The notes beneath the pieces were generated by a model that saw only the letters and a list, made by a program, of their open reading frames with translations, did not search any database and was not told the DNA's origin. DNA of 57,482 nucleotides from a virus (lineage: Duplodnaviria; Caudoviricetes), in the IMG/VR virus record IMGVR_UViG_3300032212_000008, positions 1 through 57,482 of that record; one strand, 5' to 3'. Position 1 is the stretch's first letter; every line of letters begins with the position of its first letter. The translations under genes were made by a program, and so were the position numbers. Shown here one piece after another: positions 1,136-19,983 of this stretch.

Positions 1136-2905
1136 TCAGGAGCGGGTGGCTTCGAAGACTTCGGTGGCGATCCCACGCAGGGTCCCGAGCAAGCTCTGCT
1201 CGTCGGGCGTCAGTTGAAGCGACACAAAGACTTTCTTGGTGCCAAGCCTCTCTTTGATGGCTTCAGCGTTCGAAGCGATCCAGTCGCGACGCTCGAAGGC
1301 GTCCTCCTGCCAGTAGTCGTTGCCCGTGGCTTCGTGGAACTCCTCTTGAAGCTCCCCGAAGACCTGAGCCAGAGGCACGGTCCCGCTGTTCGCCATGCGG
1401 CCGATGACCGGGACACAGCCGATGAACAAGAAGAGACCTTGGGGCTTGGGCCCCTTGCGCGCTGTCTTCTTGGCTGCTCGCTTGGTCGTCTTTTTGGTGG
1501 CCTTCGGCTCGGGCTCGGGCTCGGGCTCTTCTTCCTCGGGCTCCTCTTCTTCCTCGGGCTCTTCCTCTTCGGGCTCTTCCTCGGGCTCCTCTTCCTCTTC
1601 GGGCTCGTTCTCTTCGGGCTCAGCAGCCGGGTCGTCCGTAGCGGCGAGGACTTCTTCAGCCTCGTCCTGGCCGTCCCAGGTAAGGACGCCATCCTCGACG
1701 ACAGCGTTGAAGTCTTCAGCGCGCTCGTCGCCGTTTCGCTTGTTGGCAACGTCGCAGACCTTGCAGGGATTGCCGGTGCGCTTGTTGATGCCCGTGCCAC
1801 CGCAAGCGTTGCAGCTTGCGACTGCCCACGGGGCTACCACGGTGCCTTGCTCGGGCTCCGGCTTGGTCTCTTCCTTGCCGCTGGGGCGTCCGATAGGGGC
1901 CTTGGTGGTCGGCTTCGTAGAGGTCTTCTTCTTGGAGGCTTTGTTGGCCTTGGCAAAGGGGGCTGCCATGTCTTTCTGTTTCTTGGGTTGTGCAGTGACG
2001 CCAACGCGTCGCTTGCGGAATTTGCCGAGCATGTCACCCTCGGCGGTATCGGAGGTTTCGTTAGCTCGCATCTCTCGATACTCGCCAACGGTACGAAGGG
2101 CTTTCGTGCAGATTTGAGCGAAGGAACACCCGCCGTATTTGGTGCAAGCATCAGGGGCTTGCATAGCGGGTACCTTCGACCAGTCTTCTTCTTCAATGTC
2201 CGCGTCTCGAAGCGCAAGCATGTCCTTGGCCATGGCTTTGCGCGAGTTTGCGAACCTCGTGATCTCGAACTCTTGGACGTGACCAACAGAGTCTACAGCT
2301 CGCACCGGAACAGGCGAGGCTTTCTCGTTCCTGATGAACTGGTTGTGTCTGAAGATGAGACCTTCAGAAGCGATGCCAATGTCCAACGCTACGAGCCCGT
2401 AGCTCAAGAGCTGCTCGTTGCCCATGATCGACTGCGGCTTCTCCAGGTACTTAGTGCCTCCCGCTGTCTTGCAGTCTTGAATCCGCCACACTCGGCCCTC
2501 GTCGTCGAGGTCCATGATGTCGGGCACCAGCACCTGACGCACGCCAGGAATAAGCTCCATGAAGCGCTTTTCTTCGATGAGCTGCTTGCCGGGCTGGCGT
2601 ACCAGCACGCCTTTTTCTACAGACTGGTCGAAGAGGAACTTGATGCGCTCCATCTCCTCGACGCCCATGACGTGCTTCTGTCCGTGCTCGTCCACGACGT
2701 TCCAGCCGGAAGGGTACAGGTCCGCTTCGTTCTCCGGCGTTGACTTGAGGTACCGCTCCACGACTCCGTGCAGGACGGTGCCGAAGGCTTGGCTGCGCGT
2801 AGTCTTGCGCTTGAGCTTGTGGACACGCTGGAACCACCAAGCTCGTTGGCAGTCCTGCCACTGGCCGAACTGTGTCGGTGACAGATAGAGGTCTTTCTTA
2901 GCCAA
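1136..2905 (-). CDS. Cas4/RecB-like PD-(D/E)XK exonuclease with long C-terminal extension
   Basis: N-terminal SPTQ..W..CQR and FGTVLH, DIMD..IQDCKT, QLLSY, and CTKYGGCSFAQIC (1+3 Cys, Fe-S staple pattern). Followed by a CNAC..CKVC Zn finger and a Glu/Pro repeat. Confidence 0.85.
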   Translation of the reverse strand: MAKKDLYLSPTQFGQWQDCQRAWWFQRVHKLKRKTTRSQAFGTVLHGVVERYLKSTPENEADLYPSGWNVVDEHGQKHVMGVEEMERIKFLFDQSVEKGVLVRQPGKQLIEEKRFMELIPGVRQVLVPDIMDLDDEGRVWRIQDCKTAGGTKYLEKPQSIMGNEQLLSYGLVALDIGIASEGLIFRHNQFIRNEKASPVPVRAVDSVGHVQEFEITRFANSRKAMAKDMLALRDADIEEEDWSKVPAMQAPDACTKYGGCSFAQICTKALRTVGEYREMRANETSDTAEGDMLGKFRKRRVGVTAQPKKQKDMAAPFAKANKASKKKTSTKPTTKAPIGRPSGKEETKPEPEQGTVVAPWAVASCNACGGTGINKRTGNPCKVCDVANKRNGDERAEDFNAVVEDGVLTWDGQDEAEEVLAATDDPAAEPEENEPEEEEEPEEEPEEEEPEEEEEPEEEEPEPEPEPKATKKTTKRAAKKTARKGPKPQGLFLFIGCVPVIGRMANSGTVPLAQVFGELQEEFHEATGNDYWQEDAFERRDWIASNAEAIKERLGTKKVFVSLQLTPDEQSLLGTLRGIATEVFEATRS

Positions 2906-5639
2906 GGTATTCCTTCAGGTAGTCGACGTTGGTCTTGGGGCAGTAGCGCATCAGGTGTTCGAAGGTCTCTTTGTCGACCGCTACGTTGAGGTCAGGGTCG
3001 TTCTTGCAGACCCGATACAGCGAGCCCAGGTCAATGCGAACGCCTGAGATGTTTCGTGCGGTTCCCTGGTTCAACCGAATCGCACGTCCGCTCTGATACA
3101 AGACGCCTGCCTTGTCGAGAGTGTCGAACATGAGCTGGTCGGGGGCCACCCCTCGGGGGAAGCCGAAGATAGCTTCAGGCAGCTTCTTGATGATCGTGGA
3201 GCGCATGATCTGCAGCTGACCCTTGCAAATACCTACGTGCGTCTTGTTCTTCGTGATCGCATGGTCTCGAACGCGCTGCAGCAAGAACTCGATGACCGAG
3301 CGTGCTGTCGTCGAGCGAATGGCCGCGCGGCGCACCGGATCGTTGCTTGTCTCCAGGCCGTCCACCATGAAACGCGAGTGGCTGGGGATCTGGCTGAAGT
3401 CCGCTTGCTCCCTCAACCAGAACAGGTGCTCAGTCGCCTTCTGCAGGATGGTGGGGCGGTGCCCTCCGCATGCCTCGGACAGGAGCATGACCGCTTGCTT
3501 AGCTCTCGGGCCTACGTCGACCATGATGAGCCGCTCGGCCAACGCCTCGGTGTCATCCACGCTCAGGTCTTCGTTGCCGAACAGCGACTCGGCGATGGTG
3601 CCCTTGTTTGAGCAGAAGATGAAGCGGGGATAGACCTCGACGCGGTAGGCGTCCACTCCCTTGCGCTCCATCTTCATCCAGCCGCCTACGACCTTCTCGC
3701 GGAAGAAGGCATCGAAGCGCTTGACGTTGTCAGCTCGCGCGGGGAGGCGCTCGTCGTAGAACCAGACTGGGCAGCTCTGAATCTCGGCGTTGAAGTTTGA
3801 GACACCGATGTCCTGGCAGGGCCCCTTCTTGGTCCACATGTTCGCCACCGCATGCGCGATGAGGGACTTGCCTGAGTGGGCTTGGTGCTGCAGGAGCAAA
3901 CCGGCGATCGGGCGGTCGGCGTAGCTGCAGAACATGAGCCACTTGAAAGCGGCGTCGCTCTCGTCCTCGAACAGTGCTTCCAACCACTGGTGTACTTCGT
4001 CGTGGAACACCGCTGGGATGTCCGTGCGAATCCGGTGGATCGGCAGGCTGAGAGTGAAGCCGCTCTCCTCATCGTAGAACAGTCCGCTCGCTCGCGCGGC
4101 TGAGTAGTGGATGCTGTCGATGTGTCCCGCCGCTCCCAGGCTGTGGAAGTGCTTGGGCTCGACGGCAGGCACGTACTCGCCTCGGCTCTCGATGTAGACC
4201 CCGTAGTTCTCGGCGACCTCGGCAAGCTCGGCCGTCTCCGCGACTCGCGTAACGCACCGGGACCAGTGGCTTTTGTGGGGGTAGTATTCGCCGTTGGGCA
4301 GCAGGAAGTAGCAGTCGTTGGGCGCTCGGCCCACGACAGCCGTTGAAGCCAGGTGTGCCGTCAGGTCGTCGTCGTCCATGTCCCGAGTGATCTCGGGGTT
4401 GTTCCGACGGTAGCTGTCGAACAGTGAGTCCTGGCGCTCTTCGATCTCGCCCTTCGTGACCGCGTACTGGGCCTTGGCTTTCTTGCGGGTGCGCTCGATC
4501 GCGTCGCGGCGCTCCACGGTGCGCGCCCAGAGGCGCTCGATCATGTTCCAGGCCCTGAGCTTCCAGTCGGGGGTGTCCCGGTCGGGCTCCAGCTGGTCCG
4601 TGATCGGCAGGATCAGCCCCAGGGCGTGCTCGGCCTCCGCATCGGGCACCTTCTCGGCAGCCCCGCAAATCGCTCCGATGAGCGACATAAGGGCGGTGTC
4701 CCGGGTGCCGGCCGCGGGGGCCTTGTGCCGGAGGATCTGGGCTCGGGTGCTCTGCCCGGCGTTCTCCAGGAGGGCCTCCCCGACGGGGGTCAGGGGGCGG
4801 GCTCTCTCGCCGCTCCAGACGAGCCCCAGGGCCGTTTCGTCGTCCGGGGCGTCTCCGAGGTCCAAAGCGGCCGCAGGTCCAGCGAGGCCCGCAGCTAGGG
4901 AGCGAGCGAGGCCCGCAGCCTTCTTTGACTTGGACTCGTCGTGCTTGTCCCTGAGCCACCTAGGGTTGATCCGGGGGAGCGCGGCCCCGATCAGCTGGTT
5001 GTGGCTCTCGGCGTGGTCGAGGAACGAGAACCACGCTTGGTCTCCGAGCTGAGCTCCGTCGCGCTGGGCATTGGGGGCCCGGAAGAACCGGGTCCAGTCC
5101 AGGCACCCCAGGTCGATGGGGATGCCGCAGTTGTCGATCAGGTAGTCGACCAGGCCGGAGAGGGCTTGCTCCCCGTCGTCCACAGGCAGGGGCTCGTCCA
5201 GCTCCCAGATGTGTCGGACGCCAGCGCGGGTGGTGTAGCTGTAGCGCGGGGTCAGGTTGTGTTCCGCCAGGATTCCCAGCTGGCGGTTGAGTTCGCCGCG
5301 TGCCTGCTTGGCTGCCTTCCAGGGAGTGTGCTTAGGGTTGTCGTACTCGACGACCATCAAGCCCATCATCGCTTCGAAGTCGTGCTTGCGCCAATCGCTC
5401 AGGCCCCACCCGCGCTTGTTCTTGTGGGGGCCCTCGATGTACTTCGCGACGGGCTGCTTGAGGATGCGAGCGTAGAGTCGCTCTACACCGTTCTGCAGGT
5501 AGTACGTCGCGAAGTGCGCGTCGCAGTCCCACTCTCCGAACAAAACCTCTTCGATGGTGAACCCTTGTTGCTCCCGAGCAACATCGGCGTTCGGCACCGA
5601 GTACGTCTTGATGTGGGGAATGACCGGAAGGTAGTCCAT
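2898..5639 (-). CDS. primase-helicase (prim-pol-like N-terminus plus SF3/D5-like helicase)
   Basis: YTTRAGVRH and DWTRFFRAP primase-like motifs; P-loop QAHSGKS, WFYDE and FCSN; lies in the replication module. The ATG at 5639 is preferred as start. Confidence 0.8.
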   Translation of the reverse strand: MDYLPVIPHIKTYSVPNADVAREQQGFTIEEVLFGEWDCDAHFATYYLQNGVERLYARILKQPVAKYIEGPHKNKRGWGLSDWRKHDFEAMMGLMVVEYDNPKHTPWKAAKQARGELNRQLGILAEHNLTPRYSYTTRAGVRHIWELDEPLPVDDGEQALSGLVDYLIDNCGIPIDLGCLDWTRFFRAPNAQRDGAQLGDQAWFSFLDHAESHNQLIGAALPRINPRWLRDKHDESKSKKAAGLARSLAAGLAGPAAALDLGDAPDDETALGLVWSGERARPLTPVGEALLENAGQSTRAQILRHKAPAAGTRDTALMSLIGAICGAAEKVPDAEAEHALGLILPITDQLEPDRDTPDWKLRAWNMIERLWARTVERRDAIERTRKKAKAQYAVTKGEIEERQDSLFDSYRRNNPEITRDMDDDDLTAHLASTAVVGRAPNDCYFLLPNGEYYPHKSHWSRCVTRVAETAELAEVAENYGVYIESRGEYVPAVEPKHFHSLGAAGHIDSIHYSAARASGLFYDEESGFTLSLPIHRIRTDIPAVFHDEVHQWLEALFEDESDAAFKWLMFCSYADRPIAGLLLQHQAHSGKSLIAHAVANMWTKKGPCQDIGVSNFNAEIQSCPVWFYDERLPARADNVKRFDAFFREKVVGGWMKMERKGVDAYRVEVYPRFIFCSNKGTIAESLFGNEDLSVDDTEALAERLIMVDVGPRAKQAVMLLSEACGGHRPTILQKATEHLFWLREQADFSQIPSHSRFMVDGLETSNDPVRRAAIRSTTARSVIEFLLQRVRDHAITKNKTHVGICKGQLQIMRSTIIKKLPEAIFGFPRGVAPDQLMFDTLDKAGVLYQSGRAIRLNQGTARNISGVRIDLGSLYRVCKNDPDLNVAVDKETFEHLMRYCPKTNVDYLKEYLG

Positions 5640-5656
5640 CGTTTCACAAGGCAAGG

Positions 5657-5687
5657 AAAGTGGAGGCCGACACCCCTGCCGGCCTCC
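5657..5687 (-). terminator. GC-rich hairpin with short U tract upstream of primase (terminator/attenuator candidate)
   Basis: GGAGGCCG 5662-5669 pairs with CGGCCTCC 5680-5687; followed by ACUUU on the minus strand. Confidence 0.45.
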
Positions 5688-5735
5688 TAGTGCGCTAGGC
5701 GCACTCCCTTACCCTCACTGCAGCGCAGCGAGAGA

Positions 5736-5807
5736 TCACTTGCTCTGTCGCACCTCCGAGGAAGTGGCCAAGGCGATCAGAGTCAGGAGGTTCGGTTCTC
5801 GAAGCAT
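5736..5807 (-). CDS. 23-aa possible leader peptide MLREPNLLTLIALATSSEVRQSK
   Basis: ATG preceded by the CCCTTACCCTC leader motif found before other genes; very short ORF. Confidence 0.3.
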   Translation of the reverse strand: MLREPNLLTLIALATSSEVRQSK

Positions 5808-5829
5808 GGGTGAGGGTAAGGGTTGTCGG

Positions 5830-5976
5830 TTAGCGAGGGGACCGTTCGATGGCCGCGCCTGCGACCCGGATGATCGACAGTACCCCAAGCGAGGTACCGG
5901 CTGCAAGCAAGGACCACGTCAGAGATCCCGTCGAAGCGAGAGCCGTAGCGGTCGAGAGGAAGAGGATGGGGTTCAC
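5830..5976 (-). CDS. 48-aa hydrophobic membrane peptide
   Basis: GTGA start/stop overlap with the upstream ORF; MNPILFLSTATALASTGSLTWSLLAAGTSLGVLSIIRVAGAAIERSPR; below the ORF-track cutoff. Confidence 0.55.
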   Translation of the reverse strand: MNPILFLSTATALASTGSLTWSLLAAGTSLGVLSIIRVAGAAIERSPR

Positions 5977-6275
5977 AGGATGGAGTCTCCGGGTCGGTGG
6001 GCGGGAAGCACCCGAATTTCACGAACGGTCAACACGGGAAGATCGACGTCTGTCGTGTCGTCGGCTTCCGCATCTACGGGATCGGATCCGAACAAGAAGA
6101 GGCGCATGTTCTCTTCATTGAACTCATCGAACGTCAGGGAGTACACCAGCTTTCGAGGGACTGCAGCTACAGGCAAGATGCCTGACCGTTCGCGCAACGC
6201 AAGCGCAGGCGCTCCGTAGAGCGCGAGCGATGCCATGCCTGCAGCGGCGGCTTGGAGGAAGGATCGTCGTTTCAA
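5973..6275 (-). CDS. small protein with twin-arginine (Tat) signal peptide
   Basis: MKRRSFLQAAAAGMASLALYGAPALA has RRxFL, an h-region and an AxA cleavage site; SD-like GGAGGGGGAG upstream; overlaps the upstream stop. Confidence 0.7.
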   Translation of the reverse strand: MKRRSFLQAAAAGMASLALYGAPALALRERSGILPVAAVPRKLVYSLTFDEFNEENMRLFLFGSDPVDAEADDTTDVDLPVLTVREIRVLPAHRPGDSIL

Positions 6276-7726
6276 ATCTCTCCCCCTCCCACTTCAACGT
6301 CCGACTCACCGGGACCGGAGAACAGGCTGACGTTCGTTGAGCCGAACGGGTGGCATGACTCCGTGGCCCACTTGGAGGGCACAACGAGCTTGTGGGGCTC
6401 GACGTCGGTTTCGAGAGTGCTAGCCCCCGAGACCTCCACAACAGCACGGTTGGTCTGCACGTCGATCGTGTTGTCGAAGATGCGGGCCTCGTTGATGGCG
6501 TACTCTTCGCTGACCCACCTCACCGGAGGGTACGCCAGCCAGTGCTTGGCGTCCGGGTTCTTCCAAGCGGAGTTGGCGGCGCTTGCGTCCGGGCCGCTGA
6601 ACAGTCCCTCATCTTTCTTGAAGTCGTAGACGTCGTATTCCAGGACCACTGCCCAGTTGAGCTTGTTCTCTTGGCTCACGGCGTTCCAGCCCGGCTCGGG
6701 AAGGATCGCGATGCCTCCGCTGTAGCTATTCGTGATCTCGTTCCCTTTGACCTCAATCCGACCGTCGCGTGAGGCTCCGTAGAACGTGATCGCCGACCCG
6801 TTACCGTTGGGGGTGTCGAGGCCGATTCGGCTGATCTTGTTGTGTGCCACGCGCAATTTGTCGTGCTTGTAAGACGTCTCAGGCATCTCGTTTTGGGTTC
6901 CGCGTCGTGCGAACTGGAACGCCGTGCGGCCACAGTCACGAACAGTGTTCCGCTCAACACTCGCGCCTGGGCAGTGATGCGCGTAGATCGCATGCTCGCG
7001 GAAGTTGAAGAACTCACAGTGCGAGACCACCATCGGCGTTCGGTAGCTATGAATACCCCACATGCAAATACCTGAGGCGTCCCCGACGATAGTGCATCGC
7101 TTCAAACTCAAGACCATGTCCTTGACCAAGATACACGCCTTGGCGTCATTCGGTCGGTGCAGGTAGATCCCTTCGAAGTGAAAGGCATGTATCGACGCTT
7201 CCGCGATCGGACCCTCACCGTAGAACCCGAGGATAGAGGGAGCCAGGTTTTCATCCTTGTCATAACGGAACGTCACACGCTCGAACATCAACAGCGCGCC
7301 GCAGTAGTTCTTGCCGTTCTTGGAGAACATCAGACCGGACACGTCGATCGAGTCGTAGTGGTCTCCTGGCTGAAGCTCGACCACTAGGCGGTTGTACTTG
7401 ACGTCTGCCGACATGGCCTCACGTACCTTGGCATCCAGGTCGCTCGGCGACTCGTCGGCACTCCAAGCCACAGAAAGCTCGGACCACTCGAACGGAGGGG
7501 GCACCTCGGGCACCTCGGGCACTTCGGGCACTTCGGGCACTTCGGGCACTTCGGGCACTTCGGGCACTTCGGGCACTTCGGGCACTTCGGGCACGGGCTT
7601 CAATGCCTCGAAGTATGCTTCTCGAAGCGCGATGCGTGCGTTGCCTGCCTCAATTAGCTTGGCGGCAAGTGCGAGGTCGAGGTCGGCAAGACGCTGCGCG
7701 TCTTCGTGGCTGATTTCGTACTTCAT
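6272..7726 (-). CDS. right-handed beta-helix (pectate lyase-like) protein with (PEV)10 linker
   Basis: Repeating beta-helix rungs (VSHCEF, VERNTV, VAHNKI, VKGNEI, IFDNTI) and EHAIYAH; the ATG at 7726 lies just after the upstream stop. Confidence 0.7.
   Translation of the reverse strand: MKYEISHEDAQRLADLDLALAAKLIEAGNARIALREAYFEALKPVPEVPEVPEVPEVPEVPEVPEVPEVPEVPEVPPPFEWSELSVAWSADESPSDLDAKVREAMSADVKYNRLVVELQPGDHYDSIDVSGLMFSKNGKNYCGALLMFERVTFRYDKDENLAPSILGFYGEGPIAEASIHAFHFEGIYLHRPNDAKACILVKDMVLSLKRCTIVGDASGICMWGIHSYRTPMVVSHCEFFNFREHAIYAHHCPGASVERNTVRDCGRTAFQFARRGTQNEMPETSYKHDKLRVAHNKISRIGLDTPNGNGSAITFYGASRDGRIEVKGNEITNSYSGGIAILPEPGWNAVSQENKLNWAVVLEYDVYDFKKDEGLFSGPDASAANSAWKNPDAKHWLAYPPVRWVSEEYAINEARIFDNTIDVQTNRAVVEVSGASTLETDVEPHKLVVPSKWATESCHPFGSTNVSLFSGPGESDVEVGGGEI
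7500..7594. repeat. 9-bp tandem repeat GGCAC(T/C)TCG x10 encoding Pro-Glu-Val
   Basis: Directly visible tandem array. Confidence 0.95.
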
Positions 7727-7728
7727 GG

Positions 7729-7974
7729 TCAGTCGATGTCTTGGTTGATTTGGTGTCGTTCTACGCACACTAGGCTGTCGTCGCACACGCCTTCGGAGTC
7801 CGCCACGGTCAAGCGATCGTCAGTACCGTAGGGGAGGAAGTCGCAGCGTAGATCGTGTTCCTTGCCTACAGCCAAGCCTCTAGCTATCGCCAGGTATCGA
7901 GAGGAGTAGACGCCGGCAAGGTGGGTCGTGTCAAGTCCCCTGTAGAGGAACACAAGGAAGACGAACTTGCTCAC
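7729..7974 (-). CDS. hypothetical protein
   Basis: Tightly packed in the operon; GTGA overlap with the upstream gene. Confidence 0.6.
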   Translation of the reverse strand: MSKFVFLVFLYRGLDTTHLAGVYSSRYLAIARGLAVGKEHDLRCDFLPYGTDDRLTVADSEGVCDDSLVCVERHQINQDID

Positions 7975-9575
7975 TGCTTTGCCCTCATCAATTCAACCAT
8001 GCGGCGAAGCCAGGGGATTAGATCGGCGGCGTAGTTGGGAGCCTTCTCTTCGATGATGTCGGCTCCTGCGGAAAGGAGGTCGTCAAGCATCGGGTAGCGT
8101 GCCCCCACCAGTCGAAAGAACTCGTCGAACCTCTCCTTCTCCGTCGCGTTGTCGGCCAGCTCTTGGAGTTGGTCGGACGCCTTGCCCTTCAGGAACGGCG
8201 ACAGGGTTTTCATCCGAGGAGTGTCGAGCGCGTGGGTCGTCTGCAACGGGAAGAAGCGCAGACCCATCGGGTCGGGGTCGTTGAGCTTCGGCGGGCGCGG
8301 GCCCTCGAAGAGAGCGACACGCTGGATGCCTGCCTCTTCTGCCTCCTTGAGCAGGGCGGTCAGCACTTCCTCGAGCGTCCCGTCGTCCTGCGCCTTCTGC
8401 ATGAGCTCAAGCGCCCTGGGGTCGACCATGCCGGCACCTGCACCGGGAGGATGAATGCCTGTCTCGTAGAGATCGAGGGGCATCGCGTAGCCGGGGAAGC
8501 GCTCGTCGAGCCAAAGGCGCATGGCCTTCCAAGTGCGTGACATCGCCTCGATGTCTTTGACGGCTGCTTGGCGGAAAGCCTTGGGGTCGTACCCCTTGCT
8601 TGTGTCGTCGTAAAGCGCCTTCAGATGCTCGCCGTGCCCGACGTAGCCCCCGAGAGCATATCGGATGCCTTTGGGGTCGGTGACATCGGCGAGTTGTTGA
8701 GCTGCGATGCTTTTGGTGTAGTCGGCGTCGCTGGTGGTCTGCCCTCCGATGACGACTTCCTTCTGACCGTTGGCGACGAGAGCTTGGGCGACGCGGCCCA
8801 TGCGTGCGGCGAGGTTACGCTTGACCTTGTTGAAGTCGGCCCTCGCGCTGTCGGACCAGTCTGCCCAGTCATAGTCCCAAGGGAAGGCCGTAGGGTTGCC
8901 TCCCGTTTTGATCCTGGTGCGATCGAACAACGCGCGTTGCTCCTCCCAGTCCGCAGGTGCCGTGTTCCAGGGCAGCTCGTTGTGGATCTCGACGATGTCG
9001 CAGACGACGATGAATGCACCTTGGGCTGCGACCTCTTCGCAGTCTTCCAAGTGGTAAGGAACCCAGGCCCTTCCAGGCAACATGCCGCGCTCATGTTCGG
9101 GGTCTTCGCTCATCTCCACCCTTCGCATCATCGGCAGCGTCCAGTTCAGGTAGCGGCAGCCGGTGAACTGAGCGTAGAAGTGGTTGATCTCCTCGTCTCG
9201 ATCAAACTCCAACACGGGCTGAACCTCCGGGGCGATTCCCGGGCGAGGGCGAAAGGCTACGACCGTGTGACCTTCGGGGATGAACCAGGCCATCGCTTCC
9301 GTGTTGTCGATGCTTCCTCCTGACAAGAAGCGCGTGTCGTAGTCCTTGGGCAGTATCACGGCAACTCCTCGTACATCGACCTCCATCGGTGCCCCTGCGT
9401 GGTTGCCGAAGCTGTAGTAGCAGGCTTCCTCGGTCGGGTCGACCTTGCGAGGCGGCTGCTCGGGGCGGTAGTTGTTCCAGTCGTACGCGAGGGGGCCGCT
9501 CGATGCGTCGAGCAGGTTGTTCGTCAGCGCGTAGGTGTCCTCTTGGAGGCGCGGGGGGTTGATCCAGATTTCCAT
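7971..9575 (-). CDS. putative glycoside hydrolase (clan GH-A-like TIM barrel)
   Basis: IVEIHNELPWN (NE acid/base-like) and LDLYETGIH (nucleophile-like) motifs, plus CRYLNW and aromatic-rich segments. Family recognised from memory, not by search. Confidence 0.55.
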   Translation of the reverse strand: MEIWINPPRLQEDTYALTNNLLDASSGPLAYDWNNYRPEQPPRKVDPTEEACYYSFGNHAGAPMEVDVRGVAVILPKDYDTRFLSGGSIDNTEAMAWFIPEGHTVVAFRPRPGIAPEVQPVLEFDRDEEINHFYAQFTGCRYLNWTLPMMRRVEMSEDPEHERGMLPGRAWVPYHLEDCEEVAAQGAFIVVCDIVEIHNELPWNTAPADWEEQRALFDRTRIKTGGNPTAFPWDYDWADWSDSARADFNKVKRNLAARMGRVAQALVANGQKEVVIGGQTTSDADYTKSIAAQQLADVTDPKGIRYALGGYVGHGEHLKALYDDTSKGYDPKAFRQAAVKDIEAMSRTWKAMRLWLDERFPGYAMPLDLYETGIHPPGAGAGMVDPRALELMQKAQDDGTLEEVLTALLKEAEEAGIQRVALFEGPRPPKLNDPDPMGLRFFPLQTTHALDTPRMKTLSPFLKGKASDQLQELADNATEKERFDEFFRLVGARYPMLDDLLSAGADIIEEKAPNYAADLIPWLRRMVELMRAKQ

Positions 9576-9577
9576 GG

Positions 9578-9823
9578 TTATTTGATGCCTGCGGCTCTGT
9601 AGTCGATGCCTTCGGGGTTGAGGGTAAGGGGTGATGTTTCGCGAATGTAGACGGGTCGGGGGAGAGGGGGAGGTGCCTGCTCTTGTTGTTCCTTGAGTCG
9701 ACGGATCTCCTCCCGCAACTCGAGGATCTCTCGTCGATCTTTACGTGCTTGGTTTTCCTGAAGTACGAGGCTGAAGAGCGCAAAGCAAACAGCGCCGATG
9801 GCGAGTTTGTGGTGGGGCTTCAA
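9578..9823 (-). CDS. small membrane-anchored coiled-coil protein
   Basis: N-terminal hydrophobic helix, then a charged helix and a Pro-rich tail. Confidence 0.65.
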   Translation of the reverse strand: MKPHHKLAIGAVCFALFSLVLQENQARKDRREILELREEIRRLKEQQEQAPPPLPRPVYIRETSPLTLNPEGIDYRAAGIK

Positions 9824-10071
9824 GACGCACCCCCCTCATCGTCCAGAGTCGCCGAAATACGCACGGAGCGGACCCCCGTCGGAGACGGCGACTGCCGCGC
9901 CGAGGTGTAGGCGATAGTCCCGCATCGAACGCACCTCCAACCCGCCCAGACGTAGTTCGGGGATGCCTCGGGCTCGATCAGCTCCTGGGGCACTTCTACT
10001 CGCACCCATTTCGGCCAGCACCACACCTCTCGAAGGTGGGCCCAAAACTTCGGCTTCTTCGGTAAACGCAT
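9820..10071 (-). CDS. hypothetical protein (CxxC)
   Basis: Operon packing, purine-rich RBS, CVRC motif. Confidence 0.55.
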   Translation of the reverse strand: MRLPKKPKFWAHLREVWCWPKWVRVEVPQELIEPEASPNYVWAGWRCVRCGTIAYTSARQSPSPTGVRSVRISATLDDEGGAS

Positions 10072-10073
10072 GG

Positions 10074-10439
10074 CTAGGACGTTCCCCCCTCGCCCTGCGC
10101 CCCGGAGGGGGCGGTGGGCTCAGCCCTTTCCACCGGCCTCGGGTCTTTCTGCCAGCGCTGCGATCGGATGGCCCTGCCGTACCAGGGCCTAAGCGCCATG
10201 AAGCCAATAGGCCCGACATAGAGCGCACAGAACCTCCTTGCGCTGGCATCCGTGCGGAAGCACGAACGCTCCCGGGGGATCCAGTTCACTTCGAAAGCCA
10301 GGCACCACCACAGCAGGAAAAAACAGACGTCGTCCCTGGAGAGGTACACCTCGACCAACGGACCTAGCTTGATGGCAGGCTCGTCCCACCGACGATAGAC
10401 GTTCTTCTCGAACCGAGTGAGTTCCTTCGGGTTGTTCAC
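10074..10439 (-). CDS. hypothetical protein
   Basis: GTGA overlap with the upstream gene and a GGGGAGG RBS. Confidence 0.6.
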   Translation of the reverse strand: MNNPKELTRFEKNVYRRWDEPAIKLGPLVEVYLSRDDVCFFLLWWCLAFEVNWIPRERSCFRTDASARRFCALYVGPIGFMALRPWYGRAIRSQRWQKDPRPVERAEPTAPSGAQGEGGTS

Positions 10440-10705
10440 TGGCCCGCCTCCCCGCCCTCAGCCCCCGCAGGGGCGGAGGCCCTCTCAGCAAGCGCCCGTC
10501 TGATCGCCACGGCCTTTGCCTGCGCCAGCGTAGACGCTTCCTCGCTCGTGACGTGATAAGGCCCGTAGAGCGTTTCCACGTCCTTATTGCTTTCCCAGAC
10601 GCTCATGTAGGCGCCGTGTCCTCGCATCGAGTAGGCGCCCCAGCTCACGCGCCCGGTGTCCCGGTCCTCCCAGCGCGAGACCTTGATGTCCCAACTACTC
10701 GGCAT
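10436..10705 (-). CDS. hypothetical protein (start MPSSWDIK)
   Basis: GGAGGT RBS before ATG 10705; overlaps the upstream stop. Confidence 0.6.
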   Translation of the reverse strand: MPSSWDIKVSRWEDRDTGRVSWGAYSMRGHGAYMSVWESNKDVETLYGPYHVTSEEASTLAQAKAVAIRRALAERASAPAGAEGGEAGQ

Positions 10706-12344
10706 CTTCCACCTCCCCGCTCTCAGCGCCCGCAGGGGGCGGGGGGAGGGGCCGGACGTACAGGCCGCGCGCGCTAGTGATCGCATTCCCCCACTTGTCT
10801 GACCAAGCATCGATGCGGTCGTCCCAAAACACGATGGACATTCCGGGGAACCGGTCGTCAATCAAAGAACAGAGCCAACGGTTCCCGTCCCTCGGCGCCG
10901 TCTCGATCGGCTGCCAGCCGCCGGGCTCTGTCAATCGAACCGCATAGCCTTCCTCGCGTACTGCCGCCCACGCCCACGCCTGGACCTCATGAAAATCATC
11001 GCTGTGCGCCTCTACACTATCACACTGCCTGGCGCGCTCGCCATCCGCGCTGATCCGACCCCCGCAGCCACAAAGCCCGGGTGCGCCGTCTCCGTAGAGG
11101 CCATCGCTGGAGAGGAACGCGGAGTCGCCGCAGGTGTCGCATTGCATGTCCCCCCACGCGCCCTTGGGGATCGCGTGGTGTAGGTAGGCGACCGTCAGGG
11201 CCAGGCGCTTGCGGTCGTCCTCCAGCTCGGCCACGCGGTCCCGGAGGCGCTGCACCTCAGCGAGTGCGGCCCTGGCCTTGCTCTCGCCAGCCCGCCACGG
11301 CACTAGCTTCGCGACCTCTCCCCAGCGGTCGAGCACGGTCAGCGCCTCGCGCTTCCAGCGCTGCAAGTCGGCCATCTCAAACGCCGCCGCCTTGCGCTTC
11401 TTAATCACCGCCTCGGCGCTCTCCAGCTCCTCGAACGTGCCGTCTGCCTTGTAGAAGCGCAGAGCCTCGGCCTCCAATTCGTAGCGCCGAGCGTGGTCGC
11501 GCTCCCATTCGCAGTAGACGCACCACTCGGACGGCTCAGCGTTAGGGACGCTCTCGTCGAAGGTCTCCTCATGGAAGCGCTTGGCGTGGCCGCACTCCAT
11601 CTTCTCGCCCAGCTCGGCAACGCGGGCGCGCAGCTCCCGAACCAAGCGCTCGATGCCGTGCGGTGCGTAGGTAACGTCGTCCAACGTGACCCACTGGCTT
11701 TCCCTCTCGGTCGCCCGGAGGTTGTGGACATGCCCAAGCACCTCGGACTTGCCCTCGAACCCAGCAAGGGCATCCAGTAGCGCCTGCCAACGATCCTTCG
11801 ATTCCTCCGGTGGTGTTTCCAGCTCGGCCACGCGGGCCTCGGCGGCTTCGGCGCGGGCGGTTGCGGCCCCCAGAGCCTCAAGCGATGCAGAGGTCGCGGC
11901 CTTGCGGCCTCGATTTACCAACTCCAACTTGTCCCGCTCCGCGATCACGGCCTCCAGGCGGGCCTCGGCGGCTTCCAAGTCGTCGAAGATCACCGTCAGC
12001 TCGTCGGTCTCACCGTTGATCCACTCGGGTGTGTTCCCCTTGTAGCGGTCTCGGATTGCCTTGGTGCTGCGGCGGCTAATCGCAAACGAAAGCTTAGTCC
12101 AGAGCGCTTGGCGGCGCTCAAACTCGGCCTCGGCGGCTTTCAGCTCCGCGAGCGTATCGCCGTCCTCCTGGAGCTCTCGCGAGCGCTTAGAGTTCACACG
12201 ACCCCAGCCCGCTTCTGCCTCGTCCCGCTCCGCAATCAAAGTCTCCAGGCGGGCGGCCAACGCAGGGGCGGCCTTCGCTTGAACATCTGCGTGTGCGTCG
12301 CGCCCGTTGGCGATCAGTTGCTCGTCGGTCAGTTGGTCACTCAT
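10695..12344 (-). CDS. Ead/Ea22-like mosaic coiled-coil protein with C-terminal WQPIETAP (DUF551-like) domain
   Basis: Repeated RVAELE/AAEA coiled-coil linkers, Cys clusters, GWQPIETAPRDG. Confidence 0.7.
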   Translation of the reverse strand: MSDQLTDEQLIANGRDAHADVQAKAAPALAARLETLIAERDEAEAGWGRVNSKRSRELQEDGDTLAELKAAEAEFERRQALWTKLSFAISRRSTKAIRDRYKGNTPEWINGETDELTVIFDDLEAAEARLEAVIAERDKLELVNRGRKAATSASLEALGAATARAEAAEARVAELETPPEESKDRWQALLDALAGFEGKSEVLGHVHNLRATERESQWVTLDDVTYAPHGIERLVRELRARVAELGEKMECGHAKRFHEETFDESVPNAEPSEWCVYCEWERDHARRYELEAEALRFYKADGTFEELESAEAVIKKRKAAAFEMADLQRWKREALTVLDRWGEVAKLVPWRAGESKARAALAEVQRLRDRVAELEDDRKRLALTVAYLHHAIPKGAWGDMQCDTCGDSAFLSSDGLYGDGAPGLCGCGGRISADGERARQCDSVEAHSDDFHEVQAWAWAAVREEGYAVRLTEPGGWQPIETAPRDGNRWLCSLIDDRFPGMSIVFWDDRIDAWSDKWGNAITSARGLYVRPLPPPPAGAESGEVEDAE

Positions 12345-12676: not shown

Positions 12677-12971
12677 TGTTGTTCTCCAAGCCAGCAGCCT
12701 CCTCGATCTCGTCGGCCATGCGGCGAAGCCTGTTGGCAACAGTCTGCGCTCCCACGGCTTTTGCCTCCGCTTCGGTCAAGTCGTCGACCGGGCCGATTAC
12801 GTGCAGGTCCATAGGGACGACCCAGGCGCTGAGGATCCATGGGCAAGGGTCCATGTGGACATGTCGATTGCCAACGGAGACCTTCCAGCTGCTGCCTTCG
12901 ATTTCCCACCAAGTCGGCGTCCTTTCTTGGCCCCGCCTGTAAGAGGTTGCGTCTTTCCAGGAGTCAGACAT
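12669..12971 (-). CDS. phage hypothetical protein (WKDATSY)
   Basis: GGGAGG RBS and overlapping junctions. Confidence 0.7.
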   Translation of the reverse strand: MSDSWKDATSYRRGQERTPTWWEIEGSSWKVSVGNRHVHMDPCPWILSAWVVPMDLHVIGPVDDLTEAEAKAVGAQTVANRLRRMADEIEEAAGLENNND

Positions 12972-13206
12972 TGATGCCCTCCCGGCCTTCGCTGGCCTCC
13001 CGAATGATCCGCATAAGGTCCGCGGAAAGCGCGGGCCGCTCCTCTGCGCAGTCCTCGGCATAGGCGCGAAGCGCCGGGATCGCGTGCCTGTCGTGCGTCA
13101 GGTCGAGCACGAAGTATCCGCACCCGTCATGCTTGCCGCCGGGGGCGTCCGAGCCATCGACTCGTTGCACCCTAAATTTGGCGATCAGTCCTCGTTGGTC
13201 AGGCAT
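12964..13206 (-). CDS. conserved phage hypothetical protein (GGKHDGC.YFVLDLTHD.HA.PALRAYA)
   Basis: Motif familiar from small phage accessory proteins; RBS and overlap support ATG 13206. Confidence 0.75.
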   Translation of the reverse strand: MPDQRGLIAKFRVQRVDGSDAPGGKHDGCGYFVLDLTHDRHAIPALRAYAEDCAEERPALSADLMRIIREASEGREGINV

Positions 13207-13909
13207 CAGTTTCCCCCTGGCCTTCGCTGGCCTCCTGGGGCTGGGGCTTGATGCCTTGGGCCAACTCCCGAATCGACAGCAAGGATCGCTCCATCGACTG
13301 CGCGACGGTTTCTCCCGGGCGAGGGTTGGCCGCGTGCTCGGCAGCATAACGAATCTCGAACAGGCGCTTCCGCAGCCGCTCCAGCTCGGCCCTCAACTCC
13401 GTCGCGTGCGTGAGGTTCGCGTCCCGCGACTTGGTAAGCCCCTGGAGCCCCTCGCGGATCTCCCGAAGGATGCTCGGCCGGACTTCCTCATCGGGAACCT
13501 TAGTCGGCACGAACCCAGCGCAGCATCGGGACGCTTCGTGACGCCATTGCGCCAGCTCGGTCTCTGATTGATTCAGTTCCTCGCAGAGCCCGTCAACTGC
13601 GGCATTCAGGTCAGCCGCCTCCGCTTGAGCCTCCGCTTGAGCCTCCAGCATGTCGCTGACTTCGGTGGATGTCAGCCTAAGTTCGGCCTCCTGGGCCTCG
13701 CGCTCGGCGAAGCGCTCCTCAACCTCCAAACGCATCGCGGCCAAGGCTGTATCGACTGCGCTTGAAGGGTTGTCAGAGTCAGGCGGGAAGGCTGCAGCGA
13801 TCGCCGCCTTTGCACTTTCGAGAACTTGTATTCCCAGCCTTAAAGAAGGCTTCCATCCCTTCTCCTCGGCGCGGTCGGCGCTCCCCTGGGCTTTCGTTTG
13901 ATCTCCCAT
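13199..13909 (-). CDS. coiled-coil hypothetical protein
   Basis: GGAGG RBS before ATG 13909; heptad-rich. Confidence 0.7.
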   Translation of the reverse strand: MGDQTKAQGSADRAEEKGWKPSLRLGIQVLESAKAAIAAAFPPDSDNPSSAVDTALAAMRLEVEERFAEREAQEAELRLTSTEVSDMLEAQAEAQAEAADLNAAVDGLCEELNQSETELAQWRHEASRCCAGFVPTKVPDEEVRPSILREIREGLQGLTKSRDANLTHATELRAELERLRKRLFEIRYAAEHAANPRPGETVAQSMERSLLSIRELAQGIKPQPQEASEGQGETDA

Positions 13910-13911
13910 GA

Positions 13912-14232
13912 CTAGCACCCTCCTTGCAGGTGAGGGAAGCGCTCGTAGTAGCGCTTCAAGTAGCGGGCGCTGTTGCCGAAAGCCTGGTGCATGGTGACGC
14001 GGGAGAGCCTGGCTGCCAGCCAGCGGTTCAAGATGTCTTCGAGGACGGACCAATTGTCGTAGCCCACCTTGCCCCGGGTGTTATCGTAGAACATGTAAGC
14101 CCGCACCACCGCGCGGTACATGCGAAGCTCCCACTCGTCGTCGCTCCACTCAGGAGCCGGGACGGGGTACAGGTCAATGAGGGCGTCGAGGATCTCGACC
14201 TCGCCTTCCAGGTAGTCGGGTTGGTCACTCAC
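13912..14232 (-). CDS. hypothetical protein
   Basis: GGAG RBS, GTGA overlap. Confidence 0.7.
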   Translation of the reverse strand: MSDQPDYLEGEVEILDALIDLYPVPAPEWSDDEWELRMYRAVVRAYMFYDNTRGKVGYDNWSVLEDILNRWLAARLSRVTMHQAFGNSARYLKRYYERFPHLQGGC

Positions 14233-14572: not shown

Positions 14573-15013
14573 CTAGCGAGCCTCCGACTTCTTGATCTCG
14601 ACGAACGCCTTGACGCTCACGCGACCTTTGACGATCAGCTCTTCCGGCGGGTTGGTCGCCTTGTAGAGACCCTTGGCTTCCGCCTGGATGCGACTGCCGC
14701 GCGCGGCGCGTTGAGCGCGGGAGCGCTTGTTGTGCGTGCTCACCAGCTCTTCAAGGATCGTCTGATCGTCGCCGTATACCTGCGACGCCAGCGCGCTCAC
14801 CGCATCGGCCAACAAAGCCCAAGGGTCCGCGCTCGTTTCCTGTTTGCGCGTGTGGTCCTTGCCTACCTTCATCTCTCCTACCACTCGGAGAGTCGTATCG
14901 AACTCATAGTCCCCCGGGAGGATGAGTCCGCGCGCTGCCTTGCGCTTCGCTTCGCTGTACGTTTTGGGGAGGGCGAGGACGGTAACGGCCTCGGTCCTGG
15001 TCATGCTCGACAT
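14573..15013 (-). CDS. hypothetical protein
   Basis: Directly downstream of the predicted promoter; C-rich leader. Confidence 0.75.
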   Translation of the reverse strand: MSSMTRTEAVTVLALPKTYSEAKRKAARGLILPGDYEFDTTLRVVGEMKVGKDHTRKQETSADPWALLADAVSALASQVYGDDQTILEELVSTHNKRSRAQRAARGSRIQAEAKGLYKATNPPEELIVKGRVSVKAFVEIKKSEAR

Positions 15014-15062
15014 GGTTCAGTGGGGTAAGGGTCTCCCTGGATCGCTCCAGGTGGGTGCTAGA

Positions 15063-17325: not shown

Positions 17326-17643
17326 TCACCAGTCAAAGGTGGGGAACGCGGGGCAGACGTCCGCGTCCGCGTCGAAGTCAACCCACCGAAAGCCTTGAGC
17401 GTGTGCCTCTTTGATGATCGCGGCGACGGGTCCGGGCAGCTTGTCTAGACACTTCTCGGTGCCGTCGAAAGCTCCGACGAGTACGCGCCCCCCGTAATCG
17501 TGGGGCTTGTAGGCCGGCCCTAGCGTGGTCTGTAGTGCTTCGCACGTCCCCAAACCAGGCCAGTGCGCCGTTGATAGCGCGAGGGTGCGCTCGGTCCAGG
17601 GCCCTAGGTCGATGTCGGGCGCTTCGGATTGCTCGGTGTCCAT
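17326..17643 (-). CDS. DUF5983-like hypothetical protein
   Basis: LSTAH...GFRWVDFDADA...PTFDW pattern, recognised from memory. Confidence 0.6.
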   Translation of the reverse strand: MDTEQSEAPDIDLGPWTERTLALSTAHWPGLGTCEALQTTLGPAYKPHDYGGRVLVGAFDGTEKCLDKLPGPVAAIIKEAHAQGFRWVDFDADADVCPAFPTFDW

Positions 17644-17688
17644 GCTTGGAGGGTAAGGGTAAGGGGTTCCAGGGTGCGACCCCGGGAG

Positions 17689-17877: not shown

Positions 17878-18489
17878 CTAGTTGTCCCAGGCTTCCAGCT
17901 CGCAGTGGTCGACCCAAGCCTCGGCGGCCTTCGCGGCCCTAGCCAGCGCTTCGCGCAGACCGTCCACCTTGGATAGCGCTTGTTGCTTGCCGTAGGCGGC
18001 GCACTCCTTACGTAAGTCGGCGCCTAGCTCCTGGCCTTCGGGCGTGTCGTTGAGCCAGTGGCACAACCCATCAACGGCTACGTTGATAAAGCGCTCTTCG
18101 GCGTCGGTGAAGTGGTCGAAGTCCGAGCCATACTGGGATGCCCACTGCCCCTTTTCCTTTTGATACTCGGGCCTGACGTGGTGTCGCCCTGACGGATCAA
18201 TGCGTCGGTAGGTTTCCAGCTCCACGTCGCCGGAGCGCTTCGGTAGCGTCGCTTCGATCTGGATATTGACCTCGGGATAGGGCCACGCCTCGCGGAAGCG
18301 TGCGCCGTTGTTGGGGGCGTTGGGGTCGGCTAGGCGCTTGTCGGGGTCGAACACCTCGGACATGCCCGGATGTAGCGTGAACTCGACCGTGCCTTTTGTT
18401 TGGGTCGTGGATTGGACGTAGGCCCGGATGGTCGTGCCTTGCTCGTCGCGCGAGGTGTCGGTGAGGGTCCAGGAGGATTGATCGGTCAT
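17878..18489 (-). CDS. early hypothetical protein (start MTDQSS)
   Basis: Shares the ACCGATCCG-ATG leader with the neighbouring gene. Confidence 0.75.
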   Translation of the reverse strand: MTDQSSWTLTDTSRDEQGTTIRAYVQSTTQTKGTVEFTLHPGMSEVFDPDKRLADPNAPNNGARFREAWPYPEVNIQIEATLPKRSGDVELETYRRIDPSGRHHVRPEYQKEKGQWASQYGSDFDHFTDAEERFINVAVDGLCHWLNDTPEGQELGADLRKECAAYGKQQALSKVDGLREALARAAKAAEAWVDHCELEAWDN

Positions 18490-18529
18490 CGGATCGGTAG
18501 GGATGGAGTGTGAGGGTGGAGGGTAAGGG

Positions 18530-19258: not shown

Positions 19259-19312
19259 CGGATCGGTGGGATAGGAGGGAGGGAGGGAGCGACGCGCGCC
19301 GCTCGCACACAC

Positions 19313-19349
19313 ACTATAACGGCCGGAAGCGGCAATAGTTGCCAACTAT
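19313..19349 (-). promoter_or_regulatory. putative early promoter (-10 TATAGT) with overlapping palindrome ATAGTTG-C-CAACTAT (operator-like)
   Basis: TATAGT lies about 55 bp upstream of the first ATG; perfect 7-1-7 palindrome at 19335-19349; no well-spaced -35. Confidence 0.45.
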
Positions 19350-19627
19350 CTTAGGTTTCTTCGCAAACCCCTCGAGGGTGATTCGCCGTAAGTCGTTTGG
19401 AGACCAGGGGATATGCTAGAAAAACAGGTAGGCTTCCAGAGGGGGTCCGCTATTCCTTAAGTTCTGGGAGGTACTTAGTAGGGTACTATTGTTTTACTGA
19501 GGAATCGCCCCTTTTTTTCTTCTGGTATGGATGCATAAAGTGTCGTAAGTGACGTGGTCGTAAGGGTTTAGGCGGCGGAGGCGAAATGGCTTGGGTGTCA
19601 AGGTGCCGTCGGAGTGCCGGGAAAGTT

Positions 19628-19662
19628 CCGTGGAACATATGCATAATTATGATGTTCCACGG
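19628..19662. repeat. near-perfect 35-bp AT-cored palindrome
   Basis: CCGTGGAACAT-atg-CATAATTATG-ATGTTCCACGG. Confidence 0.85.
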
Positions 19663-19929: not shown

Positions 19930-19983
19930 TACGCAGTGCTTACCCGCCCCGGCCCACCCTACCAACAAAAAATCAAACCCCCA

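Follow-up and report, generated by a model that had tools for sequence, protein, structure and literature searches.

Gene order and coding signals of the putative enzyme cluster

We analysed a 57,482-nt stretch of viral DNA (the window), the whole of IMG/VR virus record IMGVR_UViG_3300032212_000008 (Duplodnaviria; Caudoviricetes), and within it a cluster of six open reading frames (ORFs) on the minus strand at 5830–9823, in which two large proteins, one resembling glycoside hydrolases (GH) of clan GH-A and the other a predicted right-handed β-helix protein, are accompanied by four small ORFs. We tentatively read the two large proteins as a pair of soluble depolymerases. The record represents a complete virus of 57,482 bp (IMG/VR end class direct terminal repeats; CheckV 100%) with an exact terminal repeat of 127 bp detected at its ends, and a microbial-mat metagenome is probably the source of the phage genome. 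An earlier sequence-only reading of the same stretch had taken the genome to be complete and had described the six ORFs as a tightly packed run next to the replication genes and far from the tail genes, all of which agrees with what we found. From upstream to downstream, with G+C content (GC) given for codon positions 1/2/3 where quoted, the six ORFs are:

9578–9823, minus strand: 81-aa protein with a transmembrane segment; TTG start, 4-nt overlap with the upstream stop, G-rich Shine-Dalgarno-like run upstream
7971–9575, minus strand: 534-aa putative clan GH-A-like (β/α)8 glycoside hydrolase, from model and motifs; ATG start
7729–7974, minus strand: 81-aa ORF between the enzyme genes; GTG start, coding-like GC of 0.62/0.38/0.70
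6272–7726, minus strand: 484-aa predicted right-handed β-helix protein; ATG start (504 aa if the GTG at 7786 is used)
5973–6275, minus strand: 100-aa ORF with an N-terminus like that of twin-arginine translocation (Tat) substrates; TTG start, 4-nt overlap with the stop of the β-helix gene
5830–5976, minus strand: 48-aa hydrophobic peptide rich in small residues; GTG start, two weakly hydrophobic stretches by hydropathy

Neighbouring ORFs within the cluster either overlap by 4 nt or stand 2 nt apart. Each enzyme gene opens in a stop-CC-ATG arrangement directly after an 81-codon ORF and lacks a Shine-Dalgarno-like run, a pattern suggestive of translational coupling of the enzymes to the small upstream ORFs; G-rich Shine-Dalgarno-like runs stand upstream of the small ORFs starting at 9823 and 6275 (strong at 6275). 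The ATG starts of both enzymes are backed by homologues whose N-termini align at residue 1 and, for the β-helix gene, by similarity to a close relative that stops exactly at 7726. Codon-position GC was coding-like for both enzymes and for the 7729–7974 ORF, atypical for 9578–9823 (0.68/0.39/0.60, the third position falling below the first) and for 5973–6275, and ambiguous for the 48-aa ORF. A terminator-like hairpin of 11 pairs (5687–5662) follows the last ORF of the cluster, just before the start of the primase gene.

That adjoining gene (primase/DUF5906) occupies 2898–5654, and the nearest tail gene starts at 27461, which puts 17.6 kb or more between the cluster and the tail genes (27461–47848). 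Hydropathy revealed no N-terminal hydrophobic segment on either enzyme, in keeping with the earlier statement that neither carries a signal peptide. The cluster proteins had no match in PADLOC and no similarity to the tail proteins of this phage.

Predicted folds and catalytic motifs of the two putative enzymes

The 534-aa protein falls in no curated GH sequence family, GH5 (Pfam Cellulase) included, and matched no Pfam family (E up to 5), PHROG, NCBIfam or PADLOC entry; a comparison with PDB sequences gave no relative, the best match being an unrelated protein at E 1.9. Apart from the protein itself, three relatives (67%, 35% and 32% identity) came out of a word-indexed search across 5.8 billion clusters, and a profile search of all 1.84 billion representatives returned three proteins at E ≤ 0.001, namely P0004, P0002 and the new P0013 (28% identity). 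The clusters to which the relatives belong contain 1, 6, 4 and 1 sequences, and the family amounts to five clusters in total. A search with the family alignment found no related locus in viral, genome or metagenome contigs.

An AlphaFold2 model of this protein, built from a five-row alignment, was of moderate quality (mean predicted local distance difference test score, pLDDT, 63.5; predicted template modelling score 0.56). Most 10-residue blocks of residues 171–420 scored 63–93, and the N-terminal 160 residues and residues 425–480 were poor. Strands and helices alternate through a core at residues 170–422, to which an N-terminal β-rich part (1–130) and a C-terminal helical part (453–531), both poorly modelled, are added. 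With Foldseek, 30 PDB matches reached E ≤ 0.001; among the 44 matches listed, 37 were GH5, GH26 or GH53 enzymes by title, six were triosephosphate isomerases and one was a pyruvate carboxylase, with low template modelling (TM) scores on the query (0.17–0.33). The comparison by AlphaFold and Foldseek, which the sequence-only reading had named as a check on 7971–9575, pointed to a triosephosphate isomerase (TIM) barrel of glycoside hydrolase type, and not to another fold that would have spoken against it. A VIA search of 48,161 chains, independent of Foldseek, had glycosidases or close relatives in all of its best 50 matches (Z 11.3–14.4, the usual best chance value being 7–8 according to the tool's note), with 231–285 residues aligned at a root-mean-square deviation of 3.8–6.1 Å and 6–15% identity in the best of them. 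The families matched were GH51, GH5, GH1-type glucosidases, GH10, GH53, heparanase, leech hyaluronidase, GH86 and others, which together we take to form clan GH-A.

Other model collections gave fainter signals. The ESM Atlas model of the protein aligned best to unannotated proteobacterial clusters (TM-score 0.50–0.55) that are automatically named 'putative cellulose-binding protein', one of them with RTX-type calcium-binding repeats, and more weakly to GH51, GH53 and GH26 clusters; the feature score was only 0.86, which makes this a lead. Among viral models (BFVD) the best matches were phage GH5-domain proteins, all weak (E 4e-4 to 3e-2, TM-score 0.2–0.3).

Enzymes of clan GH-A carry their acid/base at strand 4 and their nucleophile at strand 7. 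In the model, N199-E200 come directly after strand 194–198 and E371 lies within strand 367–374, in a region whose 10-residue blocks reach pLDDT 87–93; strands 273–277 and 304–312 separate the two. With strand numbers inferred from the order of the elements, the modelled placement corresponds to the β4/β7 arrangement of the clan GH-A acid/base and nucleophile. The GH-A-like motifs noticed in the sequence-only reading, VEIHNE (195–200) and YExGxH (370–375), are kept in 5/5 family members. All five sequences share Y370, E371, G373 and H375, and the 4/4 close members share N199-E200; P0013 was misplaced by MAFFT at this motif, and hhalign puts its Asn-Glu on N199-E200 with equal spacing to the following Trp-Asn, and because this corrects the placement the Asn-Glu counts as kept in 5/5. 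R141 is likewise invariant in all five, and H175 is kept in the four closer sequences and not in P0013; both sit at strand ends, positions that presumably resemble the GH5 residue set. Judged by the model, the protein looks like an active GH-A-type glycosidase of an undescribed sequence family. It is like the clan GH-A ('4/7') hydrolases, such as GH5 endoglucanases and xyloglucanases or GH51 arabinofuranosidases, in its (β/α)8 core, its Asn-Glu after a strand and its second Glu three strands on, but differs from them in belonging to no sequence family, in its modest structural matches and in its extra N- and C-terminal parts.

The invariant residues bear on whether the two proteins might instead work inside the cell on a cytoplasmic or precursor glycan, in host takeover or an auxiliary metabolic role, or be inactive binding proteins. 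The lack of export signals, the non-structural operon position and a family with no assigned function would all suit such a role; on the other side, catalytic Asn-Glu and Glu residues kept in 5/5 members argue for an active glycosidase, and β-helix enzymes and GH-A endoglycanases typically act on extracellular polymers. We regard an intracellular role as very improbable.

For the 484-aa protein, the β-helix proposed from the sequence was detected by Pfam Beta_helix PF13229 (E 6.5e-9, 36.1 bits against a cut-off of 25.9, residues 198–341). The protein consists of a helical hairpin (about residues 1–42), a (Pro-Glu-Val)x11 linker and a β-helix body (about 80–484). ESM Atlas feature scores reached 0.96 to several Beta_helix/NosD/DUF1565 clusters, and the Atlas model, of low confidence (pLDDT 0.52), aligned to β-helix clusters over residues 80–484 with TM-scores of 0.51–0.63. 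The only homologues detected were a fragment, P0005, and the full-length P0022 (65% identity overall); in the comparison with P0022, identity amounts to 33% in the N-terminal 42 residues, 24% in the linker and 68% in the body. The N-terminus had no PHROG family match besides repeat-driven ones. The linker is encoded by a tandem repeat:

7499–7594, minus strand: 9-nt tandem repeat, 10.7 copies, encoding the Pro-Glu-Val linker (TRF and repeat search; 98% matches)

In P0022 the linker is short and non-repetitive, and the absence of the repeat there points to a recent expansion whose length may vary. The source-run assemblies break inside this repeat.

A β-helix behind helices and a flexible linker, which could act as an attachment arm, raises the possibility that both enzymes, or the β-helix protein alone, are virion-associated side spikes or detachable spikes, remotely encoded, that penetrate a capsule or matrix at infection. 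A tail spike PHROG matched the β-helix body weakly (phrog_2234, E 0.0035) and an Atlas β-helix cluster is 88% viral, both of which favour spikes. The virion-anchor domain of tailspikes, however, is expected to be conserved, and the N-terminus of the 484-aa protein is its least conserved part, which is the reverse of that pattern; no conserved N-terminal particle-binding domain was recognisable. The genes lie in a non-structural leftward operon beside the replication genes and share a sequence motif with it (described below), there is no structural-operon context, and the lack of similarity to this phage's tail proteins also tells against spikes. The cluster lies outside the tail module where tailspike genes are looked for, although this is no absolute rule: RcGTA TspA, likewise a right-handed β-helix body behind an N-terminal attachment-like region, is reported to have its gene outside the main structural cluster and to be only loosely bound to the particle (bioRxiv 10.64898/2026.07.19.739414). 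Compared with such β-helix tailspikes, the 484-aa protein has only the weak PHROG match and the poorly conserved N-terminus already described.

For the GH-A-like protein, the spike reading can point to the phage GH5-domain proteins among the best BFVD matches, from Pseudomonas phages POR1 and Skulduggery, Erwinia phage phiEaP8 and Klebsiella phage SopranoGao, which share with it a phage-encoded GH-A-type barrel. According to PMC11512310, phiEaP8 belongs to the same family as phage S6, which is reported to require bacterial cellulose to infect. Those matches are weak (E 4e-4 and worse, TM-score 0.2–0.3), however, and the proteins differ from ours in being 727–926 aa long with a recognisable GH5 domain, with no tblastn similarity among 50,697 phage records. 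Overall we consider virion spikes unlikely, if still deserving of some weight.

Conservation, small membrane proteins and lysis candidates

A close relative was present in two DNA runs (X2 and X3), and its contigs were compared over 5600–10100, with no cover at about 6053–6203 and beyond 9831. The 81-aa transmembrane ORF has about 90% nucleotide identity, being covered to 9831, beyond which the relative diverges. The GH-A gene is about 87–90% identical, with one variable loop (codons about 149–193) replaced; the β-helix gene shows 142 differences and 16 gaps in the 1,086 nt of 6272–7357; and 5600–5975, comprising the 48-aa ORF and the non-coding sequence downstream, has 10 differences in 376 nt (about 97% identity). 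The other two small ORFs are not kept: the 81-aa ORF at 7729–7974 is missing, with 45 nt in place of 266, and at the 100-aa Tat-like ORF 296 nt are replaced by 199 other nt. The conserved unit therefore consists of the transmembrane peptide, the GH-A and β-helix proteins, the 48-aa peptide and a structured region at the 3' end. In a second, more distant relative, P0002 (GH-A) and P0022 (β-helix) share a contig record (three contigs, longest 33,771 bp), and both genes are thus very probably on the same contigs.

Gene prediction picked up the 7729–7974 ORF in two separate assemblies of the phage; the ORF had no family match in Pfam, PHROGs or NCBIfam and is unrelated to the other 81-aa ORF; from its distribution it appears to be an accessory, strain-specific insertion. 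The sequence-only reading had joined all six ORFs into one candidate lysis or surface-remodelling system. That interpretation stands in part: the TIM barrel, the β-helix, the lack of export signals, the non-structural position and the lack of a recognisable canonical endolysin uphold its structural half, the functional half (holin release onto a non-peptidoglycan wall, or receptor stripping) is conjectural, and the idea of a six-gene system is weakened by the non-conserved ORFs and by a separate set of envelope proteins elsewhere in the genome (described below).

One of these, the 100-aa ORF, was said to bear a Tat signal, for which the evidence is divided: it has RRSFL, an Ala-rich hydrophobic region and AxA, but its Pfam TAT_signal match reaches 19.9 bits, below the cut-off of 22.7. 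Export of the enzymes from the living infected cell, for example with this Tat-signal partner, would let them strip receptor polysaccharide, giving superinfection exclusion or less loss of progeny on debris. The RRSFL ORF overlaps the stop of the β-helix gene by 4 nt, the operon position looks early, and receptor stripping by a free depolymerase is discussed in PMC6966330. Yet a close relative with both enzymes carries other sequence at the position of this ORF, the Tat match is sub-threshold, neither enzyme has an export signal and there is no PADLOC or defence match, and we give this explanation only the slightest chance.

The 81-aa transmembrane protein has a short basic N-terminus, a hydrophobic segment at residues 5–23, a charged helical stretch and a Pro-rich tail, with sub-cut-off matches to LapA_dom (E 0.0028) and FtsL (E 0.0084). 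The single hydrophobic stretch agrees with the transmembrane segment that had been read from its sequence; the topology of this protein, and of the 48-aa peptide with its two weak segments, comes from simple hydropathy. No holin family matched the small membrane proteins of the cluster in Pfam or PHROGs. Within the 48-aa ORF, five listed substitutions separate the phage from its relative, four of them synonymous and one Ile-to-Leu, a reading in which 2/10 differences of the 5600–5975 interval were not listed. Four other ORFs overlap this one: in three of them the same five substitutions would produce 3–4 replacements or a stop, and the fourth (90 aa, plus strand) is altered only at its start codon. 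This pattern supports a real, constrained 48-aa peptide that would be under purifying selection.

A 10-mer, CCCTTACCCT in minus-strand sense, accompanies the leftward genes: it has 8 matches at ≤1 mismatch against 2.07 expected, a count that 0/100 shuffles reach. Six of the copies share one orientation and fall between 5.8 and 18.5 kb; the structural and replication operons contain none. These and the features downstream of the cluster are:

5813–5822, 9621–9630, 15022–15031, 17650–17665 and 18520–18529, minus-strand sense: copies of CCCTTACCCT
5706–5715: inverted copy of CCCTTACCCT, which pairs with the copy after the 48-aa ORF
5650–5840, minus strand: structured 3' region, with a long-range stem from two inverted CCCTTACCCT copies, then two hairpins, the last terminator-like (5687–5662)
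5736–5807, minus strand: 23-codon mini-ORF within the structured region, with a hydrophobic centre and a start 5 nt downstream of a motif copy

The motif stands 5–8 nt before the ATG of the genes at 14573–15013 and 17326–17643 and of the mini-ORF at 5807, and 46 nt separate the copy at 9621–9630 (minus strand) from the GH-A start codon downstream of it. The motif could serve as an operator, or as a promoter giving rise to leaderless or short-leader mRNAs. The GH-A gene shares this signal with the leftward non-structural operon and not with the virion genes. At 17878–18624 (minus strand) the longest ORF runs 95 nt into the upstream gene, with CCCTTACCCT directly after the upstream stop and an ATG near 18479 about 41 nt on, and so the true start of that gene is probably internal.

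The RNA of the structured region folds at −87.6 kcal/mol (z −4.64; 0/200 shuffles as stable) and is the best-conserved stretch, about 97% identical in the relative against about 86–90% for the flanking enzyme genes. Rfam returned nothing credible for it (one match, E 0.22). The mini-ORF has a single substitution in the relative, which is synonymous and too little to judge by.

The statement that no endolysin is recognisable in this genome also withstood a wider search. Among about 75 ORFs, hidden Markov models from Pfam and PHROGs detected no lysozyme, amidase, peptidase or holin family, with orphans examined at E up to 5, and a six-frame search of the whole record at E up to 1 found 0/8 endolysin families (Phage_lysozyme, Amidase_2, SLT, GH19, Peptidase_M15_4, GH25, GH108 and NLPC_P60, each detected in control genomes). 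This absence means a lack of model matches in a genome with many orphan proteins, including proteins of 200–550 aa with no match, and is not proof. Orphan ORFs are situated, for example, at 10695–12344, 13199–14053, 17878–18624, 18530–19345, 20184–21335 and 23764–24435. Nothing indicated a host without peptidoglycan. A run of envelope proteins was present in the plus-strand operon, just upstream of the terminase gene:

22571–23287, plus strand: 238-aa protein with a lipoprotein-type N-terminus (Cys20), a long coiled coil, a transmembrane segment at 151–169 and a basic tail
23439–23756, plus strand: 105-aa protein with an N-terminal transmembrane segment
23764–24435, plus strand: 223-aa protein with an N-terminal transmembrane segment; its domain would face the cytoplasm

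The first resembles a unimolecular spanin in layout, its only match to an Rz-like spanin being non-significant (E 0.47). This run is a more conventional place for lysis genes and a candidate lysis region with no recognisable enzyme. The 223-aa protein is unlikely to be a signal-arrest-release endolysin, since the basic flank after its transmembrane segment would place the domain in the cytoplasm and it has no lysozyme match.

These results bear on whether the cluster is itself a non-canonical lysis cassette, in which the GH-A protein, perhaps with the β-helix protein, would be the wall lysin and the 81-aa transmembrane protein and/or the 48-aa peptide holin-like gates. It resembles a canonical holin–endolysin–spanin cassette in having small conserved membrane proteins beside enzymes that lack signal peptides, as holin-dependent endolysins do, in its tight translational coupling and in the terminator directly after it, and the empty searches in six frames and across the ORFs add to this case. 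It differs in that neither enzyme matches a lysozyme, amidase or peptidase family, in having two large enzymes instead of one small lysin, in lacking a lipoprotein spanin partner within the cluster, and in not lying beside packaging or tail genes. The conventional lysis-type set upstream of the terminase gene, the many orphan proteins (383, 271, 248 and 223 aa, and others), any of which might be an unrecognised lysin, the shortness of the 48-aa peptide for a holin with two transmembrane segments and the atypical GC pattern of the 81-aa transmembrane ORF speak further against it. To our knowledge, no clan GH-A enzyme serves as a phage endolysin, and a narrow full-text search of open-access papers found none on a phage GH5 endolysin, nor any on a phage GH5/TIM-barrel depolymerase. 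A lysis cassette of this kind appears improbable to us.

Proposed role of the enzyme pair and genome context

The reading we favour, though only tentatively, is that of a soluble, non-virion depolymerase pair released at lysis. The conserved core would be a two-enzyme glycan-degrading module outside the virion, of which one member would be a retaining clan GH-A-type glycosidase of a new family and the other a right-handed β-helix glycanase or lyase. Both would be made in the cytoplasm, with no export signals, from the distal end of a long leftward operon of small non-structural genes, and would not meet their substrate until lysis of the infected cell. The most likely target would be host capsule, exopolysaccharide or mat matrix and not peptidoglycan, and the enzymes may free progeny from the matrix and strip neighbouring cells in the manner of PghP and LevP of phiNIT1. 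The virion already carries its own carbohydrate esterase fibre (SASA domain), a point in favour of this reading.

Several points weigh against the depolymerase pair. Most phage β-helix proteins are tailspikes, and the body of the 484-aa protein has its tail spike match, however weak (E 0.0035); the phage GH5-domain proteins in BFVD are long, at 727–926 aa, and perhaps belong to the virion. The quality of the GH-A model is no more than moderate (pLDDT 63.5), and an AlphaFold2 model of the β-helix protein from a two-row alignment was discarded (pLDDT 41.2). The claims as to virion content, timing and activity are themselves inferential, and neither the conserved membrane peptides on both sides nor the missing recognisable endolysin is explained. 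The tailspike of RcGTA offers a precedent for a spike gene away from the structural cluster (bioRxiv 10.64898/2026.07.19.739414).

The closest parallel is the Bacillus phage phiNIT1, whose PghP and LevP are two polymer-degrading enzymes, non-virion and released at cell burst, as set out in PMC6966330. The pair described here is alike in comprising two different enzymes, both with no export signals and outside the structural genes. Folds and substrates are unrelated, with a γ-polyglutamate (γ-PGA) hydrolase and a β-propeller levanase in phiNIT1, and the non-virion status demonstrated there is only a deduction here. Flanking membrane peptides, present in our cluster, do not figure in that account of phiNIT1.

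Phage-encoded polysaccharide-active enzymes are as such a known kind. What is new is the GH-A-like family, with five clusters only, its conserved pairing with a β-helix enzyme in a non-structural operon, the conserved 48-aa peptide with structured RNA behind it, and the occurrence of all this in a genome where no endolysin is recognisable. There is demand for phage depolymerases as tools against capsules and biofilms, and nearly all of those known are tailspikes. A conserved pair that is apparently not part of the virion would be the second well-defined case of matrix-degrading enzymes released at burst, and a GH-A-like family of five clusters among billions of sequences would supply a new glycoside hydrolase family to test. 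Should the phage, against our expectation, lyse its host with no conventional endolysin, using the GH-A protein, helped by the β-helix protein, as wall or envelope lysin and the 81-aa and 48-aa peptides as dedicated gates, the known repertoire of phage lysis would be widened by a new enzymatic class. Automatic annotation overlooks small features such as the 48-aa peptide and the structured RNA behind it.

Pfam and PHROGs scans of 60 ORFs showed a siphovirus-like layout for the genome as a whole. The structural and packaging genes below were assigned from these scans, and the last five entries make up the replication block:

47933–49060: major capsid protein
49569–50723: prohead protease
50790–52256: portal
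24432–27119, plus strand: large terminase with intein
41386–42231: major tail protein
35191–40314: tape measure
27461–35191: distal tail proteins
43222–45441, minus strand: 739-aa tail fibre with a SASA carbohydrate esterase domain
53380–55764: DNA polymerase A
52820–53380: RuvC-like resolvase
across the record ends: helicase
1136–2905: PD-(D/E)XK exonuclease
2898–5654: DUF5906 primase/helicase

Among the 50,697 phage records there was no close cultured phage, the capsid protein matching unrelated phages at ≤ about 25% identity, and the enzyme region, the GH-A protein and the β-helix protein had zero blastn or tblastn matches. The primase query found no relative among viral contigs, and an exact 25-nt pattern from the conserved region was absent from the genome, metagenome and viral contigs searched. 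A haloarchaeal host, which the Tat signal, the intein and the GC content had brought to mind, was unsupported by the median protein isoelectric point of 4.99, a Lys content of 4.0% and the G-rich Shine-Dalgarno-like runs.

At its N-terminus the 739-aa tail fibre bears a SASA carbohydrate acetylesterase domain (E 2.4e-22), which suggests that the virion may deacetylate a surface glycan; it also matches the N-terminal part of the T7 tail fibre weakly. In the large terminase ORF (24432–27119) the intein is marked by Intein_splicing (E 2.1e-13) and a LAGLIDADG homing endonuclease domain (LAGLIDADG_3, E 7.4e-8), and the terminase PHROG match begins only at residue 475. Between the divergent leftward and rightward operons lies a gene-poor stretch of 838 bp (19346–20183) with 50% GC (genome about 61%) and several palindromic stretches containing ATGCAT, probably the main regulatory or origin region. 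Two small early-operon proteins on the minus strand also had matches: 12964–13347 to phrog_9572 'sulfatase-modifying factor enzyme' (E 5.1e-21), and 17326–17643 to the Pfam DUF5983 C-terminal domain (E 2.9e-14).

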